Of a stretch of 10,920 nt of DNA, positions 1-10,920 are shown piece by piece; within the stretch, counting starts at the first letter, position 1; each line of letters opens with the position of its first letter. The notes below the pieces were generated by a model. It was not told where the DNA came from, did no database searches, and was given only the letters and a program-made list of their open reading frames with translations. Source of the stretch: a virus (taxonomy: Duplodnaviria; Heunggongvirae; Uroviricota; Caudoviricetes); IMG/VR virus record IMGVR_UViG_2526164651_000001. One strand, 5' to 3'. Made by a program: the position numbers and the translations under genes.

Positions 1-101
1 GATGGACTGACCTGATCCAACCACTGCAAAAACCAGTAGCCGGCACTGCCGGCGGCGGTGCCGTAGGCAATGCCCGTTGAAATTTTGTCCATGGATTTCA
101 T
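1..101 (-). CDS. Phage-21 S-type holin (pinholin class), 5' portion only; gene continues past window start
   Basis: Minus-strand translation from ATG at 101..99 gives [33 protein letters not shown]..., matching the dual-start (Met1/Met4) N-terminus of phage 21 S holin as I recall it. GGAGGTGAGG Shine-Dalgarno lies just upstream (plus 104..113). Shorter than the ORF-track cutoff, so found by hand. Confidence 0.7.
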
Positions 102-393: not shown

Positions 394-468
<75 letters not shown>

Positions 469-471
469 ATA

Positions 472-547
<76 letters not shown>

Positions 548-549
548 GC

Positions 550-626
550 TGGCCCACCACCGAGGACTCGAACCTCGCACCGTCAACTTAGAAGGTTGAT
601 GCTCTATCCGGATGAGCTAGTGGTGG
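550..626 (-). tRNA. tRNA-Arg (anticodon UCU, decodes AGA)
   Basis: Reverse complement CCACCACTAGCTCATCCGGATAGAGCATCAACCTTCTAAGTTGACGGTGCGAGGTTCGAGTCCTCGGTGGTGGGCCA: perfect 7-bp acceptor stem (C1-G72), D-stem GCTC/GAGC with A20, anticodon stem TCAAC/GTTGA, loop CTTCTAA, T-stem CGAGG/CCTCG, encoded CCA. Does not match host argU as I recall it. Confidence 0.75.
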
Positions 627-627
627 T

Positions 628-704
628 TGGTGGCCCTTGCTGGACTTGAACCAGCGACCTGGCGATTATGAGTCGCTCGCTCTGACCAACTGAGCTAAAG
701 GGCC
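628..704 (-). tRNA. tRNA-Ile2-like (anticodon CAU, probably lysidine-modified, decodes AUA); elongator Met not excluded
   Basis: Reverse complement GGCCCTTTAGCTCAGTTGGTCAGAGCGAGCGACTCATAATCGCCAGGTCGCTGGTTCAAGTCCAGCAAGGGCCACCA: perfect acceptor stem with C4-G69 and C5-G68 (TilS determinants in E. coli tRNA-Ile2), anticodon loop CTCATAA, T-arm GCTGG/TTCAAGT/CCAGC as in ileX. Roughly 90% similar to host ileX by eye. Confidence 0.8.
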
Positions 705-713
705 GGAGGCAGA

Positions 714-742
714 ATAATAACCATATGTCATCACATCTGCAA
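714..742 (-). promoter_or_regulatory. Candidate sigma70 promoter for the tRNA array
   Basis: On the minus strand: TTGCAG (plus 742..737), 17-nt spacer, TATTAT (plus 719..714), then 9 nt to the mature 5' end of the first tRNA at 704. Pattern only. Confidence 0.3.
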
Positions 743-792
743 ACTCATCTGACCACCAGCGCGTTTAACGCCCTGTGCCATTTTTCAGGCAC

Positions 793-820
793 AAAAAAAC
801 CCGCATAAAGCGGGTTCTTT
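793..820 (-). terminator. Rho-independent terminator (bidirectional hairpin, stronger on minus strand)
   Basis: AAAAAAACCCGC-ATAAA-GCGGGTTCTTT. Read on the minus strand the GC stem is followed by a 7-U tract. It lies 93 nt downstream of the minus-strand ORF ending at 913. Confidence 0.5.
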
Positions 821-912: not shown

Positions 913-1422
913 TTAAAGCTGCATCAACCTTTCCACCAGTTTATCTCTGCGAACAACAAACCAACCATTGGCTCTCGCCAGTTCCAGCCATGACTCAAGG
1001 GAAATAACAATATCATCATCCCGTAACTGAATTGTGGAAACAGTGACACCGCCTCTCTGATAACAGAGAACTCGCGTGTCGTAACTTTTCTGGCATGAAA
1101 CTGGCGTTGACGGATCCTTTTGACTGAAATAGCAGTCTTCCAGTTTTTCGAACACATCCCACGCCTGATCGGTTTCGAGCATTTTGGCGTGGCGTGCTGC
1201 GCCTCGTTCTGTCCAGAGGATGAGGGAGCGGGCTTTGGGTGAAACTGGATTTTGTGAGTAGTTTAAAGCGACCCGCAATTCTTTAAGGTCATTACCAACA
1301 ACTTTGAAAAAGTGTTTCCCTTCAACGAAGCGTACTTTGTTCTCATGATGATTCTGGCGAATACGCACCGGCTCAGTGCCGTAAAGCTGCGCCAAAAGTT
1401 CGGTGGTAATAACAGGAATCTG
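913..1422 (-). pseudogene. Prophage late-region gene of unassigned family, distal (C-terminal) part; split by IS600
   Basis: ORF 913..1395 (160 aa in the track; its first codon is TTG). The same frame stays open through 1396..1422 up to the IS600 end. Joined to 2686..2736 across the insertion it reconstitutes a ~186-aa protein MTTQISVETLSPITHNQIPVITTELLAQLYGTEPVRIRQNHH... No family recognised. Confidence 0.55.
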
Positions 1423-1464
1423 TGAGGTGTACTGGCAATAGCGGACACTACCATTTGTTCTTTT

Positions 1465-2283
1465 TTAAGCAGCCATCTGATGATATTTTTCCCTGAAGGC
1501 TGCCAGGGAGATATTCCCCAGACGAGAGTGACGACGCTGACGATTGTAGAAAATCTCAATGTATTCCCGTATTACTGAGATGGCTTCATCCCGGTTATTA
1601 AAACGATAGTGGCTCAGGCTCTCATTTTTCAGCGTTCCCCAGAAGCTTTCCATCGGAGCGTTGTCGTAACAGTTACCTTTACGCGACATTGATGTTTTCA
1701 GACCAAACTGCTCCTGTATGACCCGGTAATCGTATGCGCAGTACTGTGAACCTCGATCAGAGTGGTGGATTAGCCCGGCAGGTGGGCGCTGGCTCCTGAG
1801 CGCCATAAACAGGGCTTTACCTGTCAGCTCTTTTGTCATGCGCTCTCCCATGGCGTAGCCGACAATTTCGCACGTATAAACATCTTTGATGCCAGCGAGG
1901 TACAACCATCCCTCCTGTGTGGCAACATACGTCAGGTCCGCCACCCAGACCTGATTTGGTGCTGTAGGAGCGAACGTCTGGTTCAGCAGATTTGGCGCAA
2001 CTGGCAGATTGTGGTTCGGGTTCGTAGTCGCTCTGAACTTGCGTTTCTGCTTACAGCGTAGCCTTAGCTCCTTACAAAGACGTGCCAGTCGGTCACGACC
2101 AACGATGATGCCATTCTCTGCCAGCTCCGTCTGGAGCCGCCGGGTTCCATATGTTTCGCGAGTGCGGATATGTGCCACCTTAATCTCCAGTTTTAGCCGC
2201 TCATCACTTTGTTTTCTGTCTGAGGGTTCATGCTGTACCCAGTTGTAATAACCGCTCCTGGATACACCAAATACCTGACACAT
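1465..2283 (-). CDS. IS600 transposase OrfB (DDE catalytic domain); made as an OrfAB fusion by -1 frameshift
   Basis: 272-aa ORF with IS3-family DDE motifs (WVADLTY ... HHSDRGSQY ... [11 protein letters not shown]). Its frame is open upstream to the A7 slippery run (plus 2364..2370, minus AAAAAAA within ILKKA of OrfA) and is -1 relative to OrfA. Confidence 0.85.
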   Translation of the reverse strand: MCQVFGVSRSGYYNWVQHEPSDRKQSDERLKLEIKVAHIRTRETYGTRRLQTELAENGIIVGRDRLARLCKELRLRCKQKRKFRATTNPNHNLPVAPNLLNQTFAPTAPNQVWVADLTYVATQEGWLYLAGIKDVYTCEIVGYAMGERMTKELTGKALFMALRSQRPPAGLIHHSDRGSQYCAYDYRVIQEQFGLKTSMSRKGNCYDNAPMESFWGTLKNESLSHYRFNNRDEAISVIREYIEIFYNRQRRHSRLGNISLAAFREKYHQMAA

Positions 2284-2318
2284 CGCTTCAATGGGAAATT
2301 GTTGTCGCCATTGTTCGA

Positions 2319-2621
2319 TTAACGCGTATTTTTCAGCGACTCCTGTGCAAAATACGCTGTTGCTTTTTTTAATATATCTCGCTCAAGGCGAGCTTCATTT
2401 AACGCCTTACGCAGTTGCAGAATTTCAGATTCCAGTTCAGCCACCGTGCGGGAACCAGGAGTACCGAGCCCTTTTCTGGCGGCGGTAACCCATTGTCCTA
2501 AAGTGCCTTCAGGAAGAGATAATCGGGAAGCGCCTTCACTGATCGAAAGTTGATTTTCAAGAACCGTTCTGACAGCTTCGGCTTTGAACTCTTTAGAGTA
2601 ACGTTGGGTTTTTCTGCTCAT
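2319..2621 (-). CDS. IS600 OrfA (helix-turn-helix / leucine-zipper transposase N-terminal protein)
   Basis: 100-aa ORF MSRKTQRYSKEFKAEAV...; ends just past the A7 frameshift site; typical IS3-family orfA/orfB arrangement. Confidence 0.85.
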   Translation of the reverse strand: MSRKTQRYSKEFKAEAVRTVLENQLSISEGASRLSLPEGTLGQWVTAARKGLGTPGSRTVAELESEILQLRKALNEARLERDILKKATAYFAQESLKNTR

Positions 2622-2685
2622 TATTAGCTCCTTCTGATGCCATTCTATTTCAGGAAGGAGTGTCCGTTAAACTCAGGCTACCTCA

Positions 2686-2736
2686 CTGGTTATGGGTGAT
2701 CGGGGAGAGAGTTTCAACAGAGATTTGAGTGGTCAT
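2686..2736 (-). pseudogene. Proximal (N-terminal) 17 codons of the IS600-split late gene
   Basis: ATG at 2736..2734 preceded by GGAG with an 8-nt spacer. Codons MTTQISVETLSPITHNQ run in frame into the CTG target duplication and resume at 1422. The longer track ORF 2683..2868 is this frame over-extended upstream and terminated by a stop inside the IS end. Confidence 0.5.
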
Positions 2737-2900
2737 AACGATAACTCCGTACATTTGGAAATTATCGCCACCGACGACGCCAATCGAACTGGTGGCGAAC
2801 TGTGCAGGGTTGGCGTAACCGGGTACGGAAACCGGCGAGCCTTTCGGCTCCCCCACACAGCCCGCCATAAATCGCGAATGTGACTGTGCAAACGATATGA

Positions 2901-2920
2901 AAAAAGACGCGGGCGCGTCT
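2901..2920 (-). terminator. Candidate tR'-like intrinsic terminator
   Basis: Minus strand: hairpin AGACGCG-CC-CGCGTCT (plus 2905..2920) followed by a U5 tract (plus A-run 2901..2905). About 75 nt downstream of the candidate promoter. Confidence 0.4.
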
Positions 2921-2982
2921 CATATCGCTCCGTAAACATCCGGGACGCCAATCCCGACGCCAGATTTTGCTGGCGCGTGAGG

Positions 2983-3012
2983 AATATAGCCCCGGATAAC
3001 AGATTGAGTCAA
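2983..3012 (-). promoter_or_regulatory. Candidate late promoter (pR'-like) immediately downstream of the Q-like gene
   Basis: Minus strand: TTGACT (plus 3012..3007, overlapping the Q-like stop codon), 18-nt spacer, TATATT (plus 2988..2983). Position and short-transcript/terminator layout resemble lambdoid Q-pR'-tR' modules. Motif-based only. Confidence 0.4.
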
Positions 3013-3563
3013 CAAACGGTTTTTAGATCCCCGGAAGAGAATGCATCACGCATCGGTAGATAGAGCATATATTCAGCAAGATTTAGCCATACATCTACCC
3101 GACTGCAGCACGTCCGGAAACACCACTCAGGGTGTGCGTCATTCAGCAATTCAGCCATTTTACGCTTAGTCATCCCCCGCCCTTCATACCGTTGCCGGAG
3201 GACACTAATCAATCCAGGATGCTCTGCCAGCACCTCACTTATGACTCTATCAATACATAACGCCTCTGCATCAGTACAATGCGCCAGCCAGGTCTTTTGC
3301 TTGCCATTGATCATCTCTCGCAAAAACGCTTCCAGCTCAGGTTTCTCTATTCCCGCTTTTTTCATCCTGCGCAGGGCTTCATTGACGGCTGTTTTCGTCA
3401 ATTTTTTGGATGCCAGCAACTGGTTAAACATATTTCCCGCCTTACCGCCGCCAATATACGACCAGCGCCCCCACATGCGCAGTTTTCCCTGAATCCAGAC
3501 ACTTTCCAGCGTGGTGAGACGAAGGTGTTCCCCGCTTTTGCCTGTATTTGTTGGGTAAATCAT
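3009..3563 (-). CDS. Putative late-gene antiterminator Q-like protein (phage-82/QuuD-type family suspected)
   Basis: Preferred start is ATG at 3563, which has an AAGGAAGG Shine-Dalgarno and overlaps the upstream stop as ATGA. Product ~184 aa, MIYPTNTGKSGEHLRLTTLESVWIQGKLRMWGRWSY..., with a W-G-x-W motif reminiscent of QuuD. Sits directly upstream of the candidate promoter/terminator pair. The track ORF (224 aa) over-extends upstream. Confidence 0.5.
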   Translation of the reverse strand: MIYPTNTGKSGEHLRLTTLESVWIQGKLRMWGRWSYIGGGKAGNMFNQLLASKKLTKTAVNEALRRMKKAGIEKPELEAFLREMINGKQKTWLAHCTDAEALCIDRVISEVLAEHPGLISVLRQRYEGRGMTKRKMAELLNDAHPEWCFRTCCSRVDVWLNLAEYMLYLPMRDAFSSGDLKTVC

Positions 3564-3850
3564 AAATAACCTTCCTTTCTCCAGATTTCTTGTGTGCGAA
3601 AAACACCTTCTGCATGCATCAGGCGTAATTCTTCTTTGGTGTAATCGCTGGTTTTTACCCGCCCGTCGATTAAATCGTGGCATGAGCTACAGGCAATCGC
3701 TGCCTGCATATCGTGTGGTTTTGTCGCTGTTCCGCACGTCCCCGCCAGCCTGTAATGCGCCAGCACAGAAGTTTCGGGATTGTGATTGCAGTAGCCAGGG
3801 ATTCTGACGGTGCACATCTGCCCCCGCGCCGCTTTACGTAAATCCACCAT
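3560..3850 (-). CDS. YbcO-like prophage protein (DUF1364, Cys-rich putative nuclease)
   Basis: 96-aa ORF MVDLRKAARGQMCTVRIPGYCNHNPETSVLAHYRLAGTCGTATKPHDMQAAIACSSCHD...; closely resembles DLP12 YbcO from memory. Start overlaps the upstream stop (TAATG). Confidence 0.75.
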   Translation of the reverse strand: MVDLRKAARGQMCTVRIPGYCNHNPETSVLAHYRLAGTCGTATKPHDMQAAIACSSCHDLIDGRVKTSDYTKEELRLMHAEGVFRTQEIWRKEGYL

Positions 3851-4449
3851 TACGCAAACTCCAGTAACTGCGCGGCCACATTTTCGACTTCCTCCGGAGA
3901 GGAAAATTTACGGAACAGGATCCAGTTCCACAGCACATTCAGTACAGATTTATAAACCTGCTGAAACTCGGTTTCGTCCATGTTCGCAAATGCGATAGAT
4001 TTTGCCCTGCGCCCACGACTACCATCAGGATAAATATGCTCGGTGTAAAATCCGGCCTGAATGGTTACCCACTCGCGGAAAGCGTCAAACGACTTTAGCA
4101 ATGCCGTATCCCGGGTTCTGCATGTCGCAACTGTATTAAGGTATTGCTCTGCGGCATCACTCAGGGCTGGAGTGTGTTCCCGACCTACTGATTCGCACAG
4201 GTAATCAACGAAGCCTGATACCAGTTTTCGTTCGCGAGGCGTGATCGCCCCACCGACCGGAGTCCAGTAATCAAATCCCAGTTGCAGGAGTTTGAAAAAA
4301 CGCTTGTGGAATGCGTAGTTACGCACACGCTTAAAGTCTGCGTGTATCCACTCACCTATTTTGATTTGATGCAAAAAATCGCAACTCTCCGGCGTCGCCG
4401 GGAGAAGTAATCCGGAAGAGGTTTGTTTGACCAGTTGTATATGCGCCAT
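3850..4449 (-). CDS. YdfU-like lambdoid prophage protein (DUF1367 suspected)
   Basis: 199-aa ORF MAHIQLVKQTSSGLLLPATPESCDF... with GGAG Shine-Dalgarno 7 nt upstream; first gene of a tightly coupled three-gene block with the YbcO-like and Q-like genes. Family assignment from memory. Confidence 0.65.
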   Translation of the reverse strand: MAHIQLVKQTSSGLLLPATPESCDFLHQIKIGEWIHADFKRVRNYAFHKRFFKLLQLGFDYWTPVGGAITPRERKLVSGFVDYLCESVGREHTPALSDAAEQYLNTVATCRTRDTALLKSFDAFREWVTIQAGFYTEHIYPDGSRGRRAKSIAFANMDETEFQQVYKSVLNVLWNWILFRKFSSPEEVENVAAQLLEFA

Positions 4450-4582
4450 CGTAGTTCTCCGCTGGCGCAGTAGAATGGGTGTTCAGCCCGTTATGTAGTA
4501 TACCAGAATTAATGCCAATACTAACAGGGTAATGCTGCCAACTTACTGATTTAGTGTATGATGGTGATTTTAAGGTGCTTGC

Positions 4583-4858
4583 GTGGCTTCCATTTCCATC
4601 AGATGTCCTTCCTGCTCCGCTACTGAAGGCGTGGTGCGTAACGGCAAAAGCACTGCCGGGCATCAGCGCTATCTCTGCTCTCATTGCCGTAAAACATGGC
4701 AACTACAGTTCACTTACACCGCCTCTCAGCCCGGTACGCACCAGAAAATCATTGATATGGCCATGAATGGCGTCGGATGTCGCGCCAGTGCACGCATTAT
4801 GGGCGTTGGCCTCAACACGGTTTTACGTCACTTAAAAAACTCAGGCCGCAGTCGGTAA
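4583..4858 (+). CDS. insA: IS1 InsA
   Basis: 91-aa [42 protein letters not shown]..., the canonical IS1 InsA sequence. Confidence 0.9.
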
Positions 4859-5280
4859 CCTCGCGCATACAACCGGGCAGTGATGTGATTGTCTGCGCTG
4901 AAATGGACGAACATTGGGGCTACGTCGGTGCTAAATCACGTCAGCGCTGGCTGTTTTACGCGTATGACAGGATACGGAGGACGGTTGTGGCGCACGTCTT
5001 CGGTGAACGCACTCTGGCCACACTGGAGCGTCTTCTGAGCCTGCTGTCGGCCTTTGAGGTCGTGGTATGGATGACGGATGGCTGTCCGCTGTATGAATCA
5101 CGCCTGAAGGGAAAGCTGCACGTTATCAGCAAGCGTTACACTCAGCGCATTGAGCGACATAATCTGAATCTGAGACAACATCTGGCAAGGCTGGGACGGA
5201 AGTCACTGTCGTTCTCAAAATCGGTGGAGCTGCATGACAAGGTCATCGGGCATTATCTGAACATAAAACACTATCAGTAA
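4777..5280 (+). CDS. insB: IS1 InsB reading frame (expressed as InsAB' transposase by -1 frameshift at the A6C motif)
   Basis: 167-aa ORF in the -1 frame relative to insA; canonical IS1 insB sequence ending ...HYLNIKHYQ. Confidence 0.85.
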
Positions 5281-5489
5281 GTTGGAGTCATTACCCGCAA
5301 TTCATCCAGCAGTTTATCATTTCCCATAATGTCACTTACCCTCATCGGTAAAAAAATTGCCTTTCGACCATTACGATACATTATTGATTTTGGGGTTTCA
5401 GGGAAGTAATCCATTTCGACTATAACTGACAGGTCATCACGACGTATGACTGCGTATTTGCTACTAAATAGTTTCTTTATTTTTTCCAC
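5274..5489 (-). pseudogene. Hypothetical small protein gene whose 3' end runs into IS1
   Basis: Best start is GTG at 5489 preceded by GGAGG (4-nt spacer), giving (M)EKIKKLFSSKYAVIRRDDLSVIVEMDYFPETPKSIMYRNGRKAIFLPMRVSDIMGNDKLLDEL... The last ~7 codons and the stop are IS1 sequence. Occupies the position of rem in the K-12 Qin layout, but sequence identity is unverified. Confidence 0.3.
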
Positions 5490-5673
5490 GATGCCTCCAG
5501 GTTTATAAGTACAAACGGTTATATCCACATAGAGACAAAAATATTAATCTGAAAAACATTTATTTCACGCCGTATATTTGATTGTTTAATGTGCAAGTAC
5601 AATGACTTTTATTTTTGTTGTGTATATAATCAAATATATGGTTATTTTTCACCCTGCGTATTCAGCACGCAAC

Positions 5674-5696
5674 AAAAAACCCGCCGAAGCGGGTTT
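5674..5696 (-). terminator. Rho-independent terminator downstream of hok
   Basis: AAACCCGC-CGAA-GCGGGTTT. On the minus strand the stem is followed by a U6 tract (plus A-run 5674..5679). About 70 nt downstream of the hok stop. Confidence 0.5.
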
Positions 5697-5763
5697 AGTG
5701 CGGGTGCGTTGAGGATGCCTGACACATGAGAGGTGGCGAGGGATTTCTCCCCCGCCTGGTCTC

Positions 5764-5919
5764 TTACTCCTCAGGTTCGTAAGCTGTGAAGACAGCGACC
5801 TCCGTCTGGCCGGTTCGGATTCGTACCTCGCAGAGGTCTTTCCTCGTTACCAGTGCCGTCACTATGACGGTTAAACAGATGACGATCAGGGCGATTAACA
5901 TCGCCTTTTGCTGCTTCAT
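5764..5919 (-). CDS. hok: Hok/Gef-family type I toxin (HokD/RelF-like), 51 aa
   Basis: MKQQKAMLIALIVICLTVIVTALVTRKDLCEVRIRTGQTEVAVFTAYEPEE. ATG at 5919 preceded by AAGGAG with a 9-nt spacer. The track ORF (70 aa) starts at an upstream in-frame ATG that lacks a ribosome-binding site. Confidence 0.85.
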   Translation of the reverse strand: MKQQKAMLIALIVICLTVIVTALVTRKDLCEVRIRTGQTEVAVFTAYEPEE

Positions 5920-6256
5920 AGCCTGCTTCTCCTTGCCTTTCGGCACGTAAGAGGCTAACCTACATTTGTGAGACATAGATTGGGCCTCAGATTAATGTTA
6001 AGCGTCTTGCAGGACGCGTAATGTTAACTGGGGCTTTTCTCTGTCTGCCTTACAGTGGCATGCCCGAGGCAGACAGCCTCAAGCACCCGCAGCAATCTTA
6101 CCGATACCGATAAGAAAACGCTATTTTTTATTGCCAGCACCTTCTATCCAGGCTAATTTATCTGCGTCAGAACGGCGCAATGCGCTCGCCTGAGATACGT
6201 TTACTTGCCATGGTAACAACAGGTAACGGCAATTGCTGTTTCTGTTTTGTTTCCTT

Positions 6257-7963: not shown

Positions 7964-8018
7964 GGTAATGCTGCCAACTTACTGATTTAGTGTATGATGG
8001 TGATTTTAAGGTGCTTGC

Positions 8019-8294
8019 GTGGCTTCCATTTCCATCAGATGTCCTTCCTGCTCCGCTACTGAAGGCGTGGTGCGTAACGGCAAAAGCACTGCCGGACATC
8101 AGCGCTATCTCTGCTCTCATTGCCGTAAAACATGGCAACTACAGTTCACTTACACCGCCTCTCAGCCCGGTACGCACCAGAAAATCATTGATATGGCCAT
8201 GAATGGCGTCGGATGTCGCGCCAGTGCACGCATTATGGGCGTTGGCCTCAACACGGTTTTACGTCACTTAAAAAACTCAGGCCGCAGTCGGTAA
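8019..8294 (+). CDS. insA: IS1 InsA (copy 2)
   Basis: 91-aa ORF identical in protein sequence to copy 1. Confidence 0.9.
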
Positions 8295-8570
8295 CCTCGC
8301 GCATACAACCGGGCAGTGATGTGATTGTCTGCGCTGAAATGGACGAACATTGGGGCTACGTCGGTGCTAAATCACGTCAGCGCTGGCTGTTTTACGCGTA
8401 TGACAGGATACGGAGGACGGTTGTGGCGCACGTCTTCGGTGAACGCACTCTGGCCACACTGGAGCGTCTTCTGAGCCTGCTGTCGGCCTTTGAGGTCGTG
8501 GTATGGATGACGGATGGCTGGCCGCTGTATGAATCACGCCTGAAGGGAAAGCTGCACGTTATCAGCAAGC
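8213..8570 (+). pseudogene. insB: IS1 insB, 5' part, disrupted by IS600 (3' part at 9835..9983)
   Basis: Track ORF 8213..8617 matches InsB up to ...HVISK and then reads into the IS600 end. The remainder of insB ([15 protein letters not shown]...HYQ) resumes at 9835. Confidence 0.85.
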
Positions 8571-8613
8571 TGAGGTGTACTGGCAATAGCGGACACTACC
8601 ATTTGTTCTTTTT

Positions 8614-9432
8614 TTAAGCAGCCATCTGATGATATTTTTCCCTGAAGGCTGCCGGGGAGATATTCCCCAGACGAGAGTGACGACGCTGACGATTGTAGAA
8701 AATCTCAATGTATTCCCGTATTACTGAGATGGCTTCATCCCGGTTATTAAAACGATAGTGGCTCAGGCTCTCATTTTTCAGCGTTCCCCAGAAGCTTTCC
8801 ATCGGAGCATTGTCGTAACAGTTACCTTTACGCGACATTGATGTTTTCAGACCAAACTGCTCCTGTATGACCCGGTAATCGTATGCGCAGTACTGTGAAC
8901 CTCGATCAGAGTGGTGGATTAGCCCGGCAGGTGGGCGCTGGCTCCTGAGCGCCATAAACAGGGCTTTACCTGTCAGCTCTTTTGTCATGCGCTCTCCCAT
9001 GGCGTAGCCGACAATTTCGCACGTATAAACATCTTTGATGCCAGCGAGGTACAACCATCCCTCCTGTGTGGCAACATACGTCAGGTCCGCCACCCAGACC
9101 TGATTTGGTGCTGTAGGAGCGAACGTCTGGTTCAGCAGATTTGGCGCAACTGGCAGATTGTGGTTCGGGTTCGTAGTCGCTCTGAACTTGCGTTTCTGCT
9201 TACAGCGTAGCCTTAGCTCCTTACGAAGACGTGCCAGTCGGTCACGACCAACGATGATGCCATTCTCTGCCAGCTCCGTCTGGAGCCGCCGGGTTCCATA
9301 TGTTTCGCGAGTGCGGATATGTGCCACCTTAATCTCCAGTTTTAGCCGCTCATCACTTTGTTTTCTGTCTGAGGGTTCATGCTGTACCCAGTTGTAATAA
9401 CCGCTCCTGGATACACCAAATACCTGACACAT
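8614..9432 (-). CDS. IS600 transposase OrfB (copy 2)
   Basis: 272 aa; differs from copy 1 at two residues (C/R and L/P). Confidence 0.85.
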
Positions 9433-9467
9433 CGCTTCAATGGGAAATTGTTGTCGCCATTGTTCGA

Positions 9468-9770
9468 TTAACGCGTATTTTTCAGCGACTCCTGTGCAAA
9501 ATACGCTGTTGCTTTTTTTAATATATCTCGCTCAAGGCGAGCTTCATTTAACGCCTTACGCAGTTGCAGAATTTCAGATTCCAGTTCAGCCACCGTGCGG
9601 GAACCAGGAGTACCGAGCCCTTTTCTGGCGGCGGTAACCCATTGTCCTAAAGTGCCTTCAGGAAGAGATAATCGGGAAGCGCCTTCACTGATCGAAAGTT
9701 GATTTTCAAGAACCGTTCTGACAGCTTCGGCTTTGAACTCTTTAGAGTAACGTTGGGTTTTTCTGCTCAT
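9468..9770 (-). CDS. IS600 OrfA (copy 2)
   Basis: 100 aa, identical to copy 1; A7 frameshift run at plus 9513..9519. Confidence 0.85.
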   Translation of the reverse strand: MSRKTQRYSKEFKAEAVRTVLENQLSISEGASRLSLPEGTLGQWVTAARKGLGTPGSRTVAELESEILQLRKALNEARLERDILKKATAYFAQESLKNTR

Positions 9771-9998
9771 TATTAGCTCCTTCTGATGCCATTCTATTTC
9801 AGGAAGGAGTGTCCGTTAAACTCAGGCTACCTCAAGCGTTACACTCAGCGCATTGAGCGACATAATCTGAATCTGAGACAACATCTGGCAAGGCTGGGAC
9901 GGAAGTCACTGTCGTTCTCAAAATCGGTGGAGCTGCATGACAAGGTCATCGGGCATTATCTGAACATAAAACACTATCAGTAAGTTGGAGTCATTACC

Positions 9999-10343: not shown

Positions 10344-10920
<577 letters not shown>

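Follow-up and report, generated by a model that had tools for sequence, protein, structure and literature searches.

The stretch of DNA analysed here, hereafter the window, comprises 10,920 nucleotides of a Caudoviricetes record (IMGVR_UViG_2526164651_000001). Read along its minus strand, one end of the window carries, in this order, the gene of a Q-like antiterminator, a pR'-like promoter, a tR'-like terminator, a gene of the ORF6N family that is split by an IS600 element, an intrinsic terminator, a promoter-like site, four phage tRNA genes and the beginning of a holin gene (Table 1).

Table 1. Coordinates of the features at and around the interrupted ORF6N gene, in the order in which they are met on the minus strand
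Feature	Position	Strand	Remarks
Q-like antiterminator gene, 184 aa, intact	3009..3563	-	Pfam DUF1133, PHROG 753
pR'-like sigma-70 promoter (predicted)	2983..3012	-	TTGACT-18-TATATT; 10/12 consensus matches
tR'-like intrinsic terminator (predicted)	2896..2921	-	GAGACGCG CCCG CGTCTT then T-run; from scan
ORF6N gene, 5' fragment	2686..2748	-	GGAG, ATG 2736, codons 1-17; 2686-2688 is one CTG copy
IS600 copy 1 (IS3 family)	1423..2685	-	orfA 2621..2319, orfB 2283..1465; orientation of the late operon
CTG, second copy of the target duplication	1420..1422	.	single CTG in the intact allele
ORF6N gene, 3' fragment	913..1422	-	codons 17-185 and stop 915..913
Intrinsic terminator after ORF6N (predicted)	793..816	-	AACCCGC UUUAU GCGGGUU then U-run
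Promoter-like site ahead of the tRNA array	714..743	-	TTTGCA-18-TATTAT; from promoter scan
Phage tRNA array	394..704	-	CAU, Arg-UCU, Thr-UGU, Gly-UCC
Class II holin gene, 5' part	1..101	-	ATG 101..99; cut by the window edge

The Q-like protein belongs to Pfam DUF1133 (E 4.5e-108) and to PHROG 753, 'anti-termination protein Q-like' (E 1.5e-80), and differs at 12 amino acids from the copy found in E. coli FDAARGOS_944. The pR'-like site, which is the best sigma-70 match of the region, overlaps the stop codon of this gene (3009-3011) and is followed by a leader of about 80 nt that ends at the tR'-like terminator. Specifically, the leader (2980..2890) is predicted to fold with a free energy of -38.7 kcal/mol (z -3.5) and to end in a hairpin with U6 behind it, and the predicted terminator behind the ORF6N gene folds, in the segment 840..785, at -22.3 kcal/mol (z -5.5). 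The first tRNA of the array, with anticodon CAU, is called Met by ARAGORN and Ile by RefSeq.

The arrangement of promoter, leader and terminator matches the pR'/6S/tR' layout of lambda. In the same way, the annotation of phage VT2-Sakai holds features that resemble those described here, that is, a late promoter, a Q-utilisation site, terminators, a 'putative tRNA promoter' and tRNAs. The succession of Q, promoter, terminator, accessory gene, tRNAs and holin is also that of the lambdoid accessory (moron) slot, which in Stx phages is occupied by stx and tRNAs and in which an Ile(CAU)-type tRNA likewise comes first. In contrast to the Stx phages, the cargo is here a putative regulator rather than a toxin, and the antiterminator is of the DUF1133 type.

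The original prediction had described the split gene as a late gene lying between pR' and the tRNA and lysis genes. The anatomy agrees with this placement, as the gene lies downstream of the Q-like gene and of the pR'- and tR'-like sites and upstream of the tRNAs and holin. Judging from this position, transcription of the ORF6N gene would be late and dependent on Q, with the qualification that the Q-like protein is a DUF1133 protein that barely reaches the cutoff of the Phage_antitermQ model (27.5 bits against 26) and that no Q-binding or pause element was recognized. In addition, a GATAAT motif, spotted by eye about 30 nt before the ATG, may act as a weak private promoter of the gene.

The IS600 element and its insertion point

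The ends of the inserted element can be read directly from the sequence and delimit a copy of IS600 of 1263 bp, which starts with TGAGGTGTACTGGCAATAGC... at 1423 and finishes with ...CCGTTAAACTCAGGCTACCTCA at 2685. On the plus strand, the left junction (1420-1423) reads ...AACAGGAAT CTG, followed by TGAGGTGTACTGGCAATAGCGGACAC..., and the right junction (2685-2688) reads ...CCGTTAAACTCAGGCTACCTCA, followed by CTG GTTATGGG... The element is therefore flanked by a direct repeat of CTG, at 1420-1422 and at 2686-2688, which represents a target-site duplication of 3 bp and of which either copy can be assigned to either side of IS600. The insertion point falls in codon 17 of the ORF6N gene, and IS600 is oriented like the gene that it interrupts.

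When 1423..2688 is excised in silico, the two flanks join in a single minus-strand frame of 185 codons plus a stop, which opens with the ATG at 2736, has its last codon at 916 and is closed by the stop at 915..913. Accordingly, the clean insertion with duplication of CTG that had been proposed is confirmed both by the junctions and by the excision, and 2736..2686 joined to 1422..913 is, as anticipated, open throughout. The reconstructed product had been given as about 186 aa; it has 185 residues, the count of 186 including the stop codon. Moreover, the good ribosome-binding site that had been noted for the start at 2736 is borne out by a putative GGAG at 2748..2745, 8 nt ahead of the ATG. Neither of the two fragments present in the window has gained a stop or a frameshift. 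The rebuilt frame is not a product of chance, since the rebuilt locus of 1134 bp matches that of E. coli FDAARGOS_944 (NZ_CP065613.1) over its whole length with 98.6% identity.

An in-frame ATG lies further upstream, at 2868, and is used by some gene callers to give a form of 229 aa (clusters P0064 and P0112). This start was rejected: inspection by eye finds no Shine-Dalgarno motif before ATG 2868, the GGAG precedes ATG 2736, and within the 120 closest clusters the majority of annotated alleles begin at the equivalent of 2736 and have lengths of 185-203 aa.

IS600 is an insertion sequence common in Shigella, and the element found here is a typical member of its kind. Copy 1 shows 99.2% nucleotide identity to elements that numerous complete E. 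coli genomes carry under the annotation 'IS3-like element IS600 family transposase', and 99.7% identity to copy 2 of the window (8571..9834, 1264 bp). Its ends are imperfect inverted repeats beginning with TGAGGT, with TGAGGTGTACTGGCAATAGCGGACAC and TGAGGTAGCCTGAGTTTAACGGACAC at the two extremities. Its reading frames, orfA (100 aa) and orfB (272 aa), have counterparts in related loci (L006-L008) in which the same IS600 genes carry Pfam HTH_Tnp_1 and rve. An A7G run on the minus strand (about 2366-2373) is a candidate site for a -1 frameshift; the RefSeq annotation notes a 'programmed frameshift'. Both copies are flanked by target-site duplications of 3 bp, CTG for copy 1 and AGC for copy 2. 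In other words, the element is like the IS600 of Shigella and E. coli prophages in its identity (99.2-99.7%), its TGAGG repeats, its orfA/orfB organization and its 3-bp duplication, and shows no difference of kind from other copies, apart from having one T fewer in a homopolymer just 3' of orfB. In particular, the T-run at 1459-1464 counts 6 T instead of 7, and for this reason copy 1 measures 1263 bp and not 1264. The missing T may be a genuine deletion of 1 bp or may reflect an error in sequencing the homopolymer.

Another prophage IS600, adjoining ninF, is found in E. coli FORC_028 and related strains. Alignment of the ends of three IS600 elements (copy 1, copy 2 and that of FORC_028) shows identity through TGAGG and unrelated flanks outside; the boundary of IS600 is fixed by the fact that the three copies diverge exactly at this point. 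As megablast matches to O26 genomes run 19 bases past the end of the IS, a shared flank or a longer IS600 was considered and rejected, the alignment identifying the 19-base extension as a chance run into ninF.

Family and intact alleles of the interrupted protein

The family of the interrupted protein, left without assignment by the original prediction, is ORF6N / PHROG 2379 'anti-repressor'. Profile and homology searches with the rebuilt 185-aa protein recover a phage family at two levels. Pfam ORF6N (PF10543) covers residues 12-97 (E 2.7e-20; 72.9 bits against a cutoff of 27.8), and PHROG 2379 is matched over the full length (1-185 of 187; E 3.2e-94). No NCBIfam model matches the rebuilt protein, and a PDB sequence search with it returned nothing at E up to 1. 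AlphaFold2, run on an alignment of 23 sequences whose homologues are 85-97% identical, gave an unusable model (pLDDT 40.8, pTM 0.28). A homologue search collected 4743 proteins at E up to 1e-5, and the closest clusters listed are 'ORF6N domain-containing proteins' of 185-203 aa from E. coli, E. albertii, Salmonella enterica and Shigella.

The protein appears to be composed of two parts. Its N-terminal ORF6N domain belongs with the KilA-N/Bro-N domains, to which DNA or protein binding is generally ascribed. Residues 100-185 form a separate and rare C-terminal module, with 28 matching representative clusters among 1.84 billion. This module is met in ORF6N fusions, in a Phage_pRha fusion, in a Bro-N+ORF6N fusion and as a free-standing protein of about 85 aa. 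Domain shuffling of this sort characterizes the phage regulators of the Bro network, the Pfam domains of which are enumerated in PMC10111431. The C-terminal module probably gives partner specificity. As regards the activity of the protein, the term 'anti-repressor' is a name transferred by homology. An anti-repressor role would be the most likely single function, a tentative proposal that draws on the annotation of the PHROG family and of relatives in many phages; DNA-binding activity would be consistent with the domain. If it were an anti-repressor, the protein would strengthen the commitment to lysis or target co-resident prophages. A literature search returned no experiments with this ORF6N protein, nor any on anti-repressors encoded in a late operon.

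Relatives of the protein are known from Stx phages. H0107 of VT2-Sakai ('similar to TP901-1 Orf6'), Ant of CP-1639 and Ant of PA28 share the same Pfam domain, and their N-terminal 100-120 residues are 74-83% identical; however, for the Stx-phage homologues listed the match is confined to the N-terminal 56-66%, the C-termini being different, and query coverage reaches at least 80% in only 4 of the 368 matching phage records. The genomic position differs as well. In VT2-Sakai, H0107 belongs to the nin region, between ninE and roi and upstream of Q, and is therefore delayed-early and not late, whereas the ORF6N gene of the window lies downstream of the Q-like gene. It follows that the late position goes with the prophage family that has a DUF1133-type Q. 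In a prophage family common in E. coli and Salmonella and endowed with this type of Q, the first slot of the late transcript would be filled by a Bro-network regulator. This late-slot regulator, whose function is read from sequence similarity, is biology of only mild interest, and lies upstream of the insertion finding itself.

An uninterrupted allele exists in a related prophage, that of E. coli FDAARGOS_944, so that the lack of an intact homologue, which would have spoken against the original prediction, does not apply. The intact protein (WP_001343833.1) has 185 aa and differs from the rebuilt one solely by V76I, and at the insertion point its gene carries one CTG (AACAGGAATCTGGTTATGGG; locus L001, 6711). 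The gene order of the FDAARGOS_944 prophage is collinear with the window, with DUF1367, DUF1364/YbcO, DUF1133 (Q-like), ORF6N, four tRNAs and class II holin genes; after the holin gene come a hypothetical gene, lysozyme, lysis protein and terminase. The locus of WP_001343833.1 (cluster P0001) thus has the same gene order on both sides as the window, but is uninterrupted and has a complete lysis cassette and terminase genes. When the entire window is compared with this locus by blast, it proves to be the same prophage segment with IS elements added. Moreover, an uninterrupted locus (at least 80%) is present in 126 of 5426 complete E. coli genomes, O157:H7, O121 and O111 strains included, and the 20 best of these 126 are annotated 'ORF6N domain-containing protein | DUF1133 family protein'.

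Inheritance of the insertion and fate of the prophage

The insertion is not private to the window. Both junctions are found exactly in the complete genome records CP007037.1, CP020339.1 and CP001383.1. These loci were reached through a 215-aa chimeric ORF (P0050), composed of about 46 IS600-encoded residues and of ORF6N residues 17-185, which is annotated in all three records; their assignment to Shigella flexneri is by the label of this protein. P0050 occurs on 105 contigs and bears the NCBI label 'putative bacteriophage protein [Shigella flexneri]'. The contig AFGX01000042.1 (GCA_000213715.2) has the same left junction, with 2 differing positions across its 1.68-kb overlap with the window. 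The exact left junction has no match in a scan of a contig collection holding one genome per species, and, among the best matches in complete E. coli RefSeq genomes, none covers more than 85% of the interrupted query. The exact junctions in three complete records show that the insertion is old, inherited and already in public annotation. Very probably, the chromosome that hosts this defective prophage is that of S. flexneri. The insertion would then be a fixed and inherited pseudogenisation in an S. flexneri lineage, one of several IS insertions in the remnant, and it is an instance of ordinary IS-driven prophage decay already visible in public S. flexneri genomes.

We consider it very likely that the locus belongs to a defective lambdoid prophage in which an ORF6N regulator gene, the first of a Q-dependent late unit, has been pseudogenised by IS600 at codon 17. 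In the intact phage, the Q-like protein would modify RNA polymerase at pR', and the first protein produced from the late transcript would be a small Bro-network regulator, the ORF6N protein. IS600 has inserted itself into codon 17 in the same orientation as the gene, duplicating CTG, and has parted the ribosome-binding site and the first 17 codons from the remainder, so that no normally translated product would be expected. The failure of the prophage to lyse would, however, have a cause other than this insertion.

On this last point a broader effect had been predicted, namely that the element, through its internal terminators, would be polar on the tRNA array and on the holin and would block lysis. 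IS600 does lengthen the distance from pR' to the downstream genes by 1.26 kb, and one terminator-like hairpin lies within it on the relevant strand (2103..2084). Yet this one minus-strand site inside the IS has a T-poor tail (ACGTCTTTGT), and the 8 terminator-like sites of the region (3.8 +/- 2.0 in shuffled sequences) are mostly on the other strand or outside IS600, so that polarity by IS-internal terminators finds little in its favour. In addition, even the uninterrupted path already contains two good intrinsic terminators (2921..2896 and 816..793), and expression of the downstream genes must therefore rely on antitermination. RNA polymerase modified by Q of lambda resists terminators, and antitermination by N and Q of lambda suppresses both terminators and the polarity of insertion sequences. 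Furthermore, a promoter-like site (743..714) directly precedes the first tRNA and could serve the array separately.

A different origin for the loss of lysis is indicated by the contig AFGX01000042.1, which shares the junction. There, directly behind the holin gene lies a C-terminal piece of a tail-fibre gene, which matches positions 748-922 of the 1376-position profile of PHROG 454, followed by a tail-fibre assembly gene, a second tail-fibre gene, a DUF4376 gene and a gene with a NEL domain (IpaH-type E3 ligase). Endolysin, spanin, terminase and head genes and most tail genes are absent from this contig, the window itself ending within the holin gene. The missing endolysin, spanin, terminase, head and tail genes suffice to abolish lysis. 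As a consequence, the view that the prophage can no longer lyse is probably true, whereas its proposed cause has to be changed from IS600 to deletion: loss of lysis is probably better explained by deletion than by the insertion, and we regard a block of lysis through IS600 polarity as unlikely.

A further alternative concerns the interrupted gene itself. ORF6N residues 17-185, fused to the roughly 46 residues contributed by IS600, might stay functional and be expressed by read-through from the transposase promoter, which would put the regulator under the control of the IS. P0050, present on 105 contigs, indeed shows the 215-aa frame to be open in many S. flexneri genomes, and IS600 and the ORF6N gene share the same orientation. 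Moreover, the invariant columns of the close-homologue alignment, which consists of sequences 85-97% identical, two of them S. flexneri ORFs devoid of the native N-terminus, begin at P19, which suggests that the conserved part is hardly reduced. Against this, the start of the chimeric frame is a TTG inside orfB (as read in IS600 copy 2, 8562..8708). In the window, furthermore, the T6 run at 1459-1464 shifts the frame, and the open remnant is reduced to 160 aa, with a TTG start and without residues 1-25; the same 160-aa ORF occurs in AFGX01000042.1. We therefore hold a functional fusion to be highly improbable and retain pseudogenisation as the preferred reading, with the specification that the alleles of sister genomes with T7 in the IS600 end keep residues 17-185 in frame (P0050), so that their loss of function may be incomplete. 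Equally improbable is a selective scenario in which a late anti-repressor would lock in the commitment to lysis or induce co-resident lambdoid prophages in trans and in which its loss by IS600 insertion would have been selected, stabilising the ipaH-carrying remnants in S. flexneri.

The significance of the insertion reaches little beyond annotation, as one further example of IS-driven prophage decay in Shigella. In this respect, the rebuilt ORF supplies the exact ancestral sequence, and the 'putative bacteriophage protein' and the 168-aa 'ORF6N domain-containing protein' of S. flexneri can be recognized as remnants of the gene split by IS600.

Downstream boundary of the tRNA array

Three complete genome records (CP007037.1, CP020339.1 and CP001383.1) have the same IS600::ORF6N junctions as the window. 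In the loci taken from them, at about 11167-12886, the homology to the window breaks off precisely where the prophage-borne tRNA-Gly(UCC) has its 3′ end, at window position 394. The place of the holin is taken, after this tRNA gene, by a gene coding for a 534-aa tyrosine integrase, with a Phage_integrase domain and a faint DUF6538 match. Together, the position of the homology stop and the presence of an integrase instead of the holin suggest that an integrative element has inserted into the phage tRNA gene.

The first tRNA of the array (628..704) is assigned to Met (CAU) by ARAGORN, while the identical E. coli gene is annotated as tRNA-Ile in RefSeq. Presumably, it is of the lysidine-modified Ile2 type, like ileZ of Stx phages.

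AFGX01000042.1 is the contig that also contains the left IS600/ORF6N junction of the window. Here, the region 1581-5897 is a prophage remnant with an ipaH-type gene: a tail-fibre fragment adjoins the holin, and the end of the prophage is occupied by a gene whose product has a NEL (IpaH-type E3 ligase) domain.

Further insertions and the toxin gene

Besides the tRNA array, the window includes a toxin gene and several other mobile elements.

Features of the window outside the interrupted ORF6N gene
Feature	Position	Strand	Context
tRNA array (CAU, Arg-UCU, Thr-UGU, Gly-UCC, in order)	394..704	minus	between ORF6N and holin
Further IS1 copy	4528..5295		upstream of DUF1367 gene
Hok/Gef-family toxin gene	5764..5976	minus	nin-like region
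IS1 of nested insertion	7964..9998		split by second IS600
Second IS600 (copy 2)	8571..9834		within IS1
Part of another IS3-family element	10344..10920		right end of window

In the nest, a DUF4014-like gene is interrupted by IS1, with a 9-bp duplication (GATATTTTT), and this IS1 is in turn split by the second IS600 (1264 bp, 99.7% identical to copy 1), with the 3-bp duplication AGC. No target duplication is evident around the further IS1 copy; about 8 bp of the E. coli FDAARGOS_944 reference locus (8563-8570) fall outside the flanking blast alignments on both sides, and all three complete genome records carry an IS1 at the same site. For the IS3-family part, the collinear position in E. coli FDAARGOS_944 holds a transposase pseudogene of the 'ISEc52 family', with 95.8% identity. 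The toxin gene bears the same annotation in the collinear E. coli locus, with a PF01848 match in the three complete genome records.

The putative pR′ leader and a T-run in IS600

A putative pR′ leader about 80 nt long (2890..2980, minus strand) folds into three hairpins (z -3.5). In lysogens, the Stx-phage leader is reported in the abstract of PMC7547250 to be set free as a small RNA, and the leader in the window could have the same fate.

Finally, a run of 6 T at 1459..1464, in the end of IS600 copy 1, corresponds to 7 T in copy 2, in an E. coli IS600 and in the otherwise near-identical contig AFGX01000042.1. With 6 T rather than 7, the chimeric IS600::ORF6N ORF annotated in other strains is broken in the window; the missing T may be a homopolymer sequencing error.
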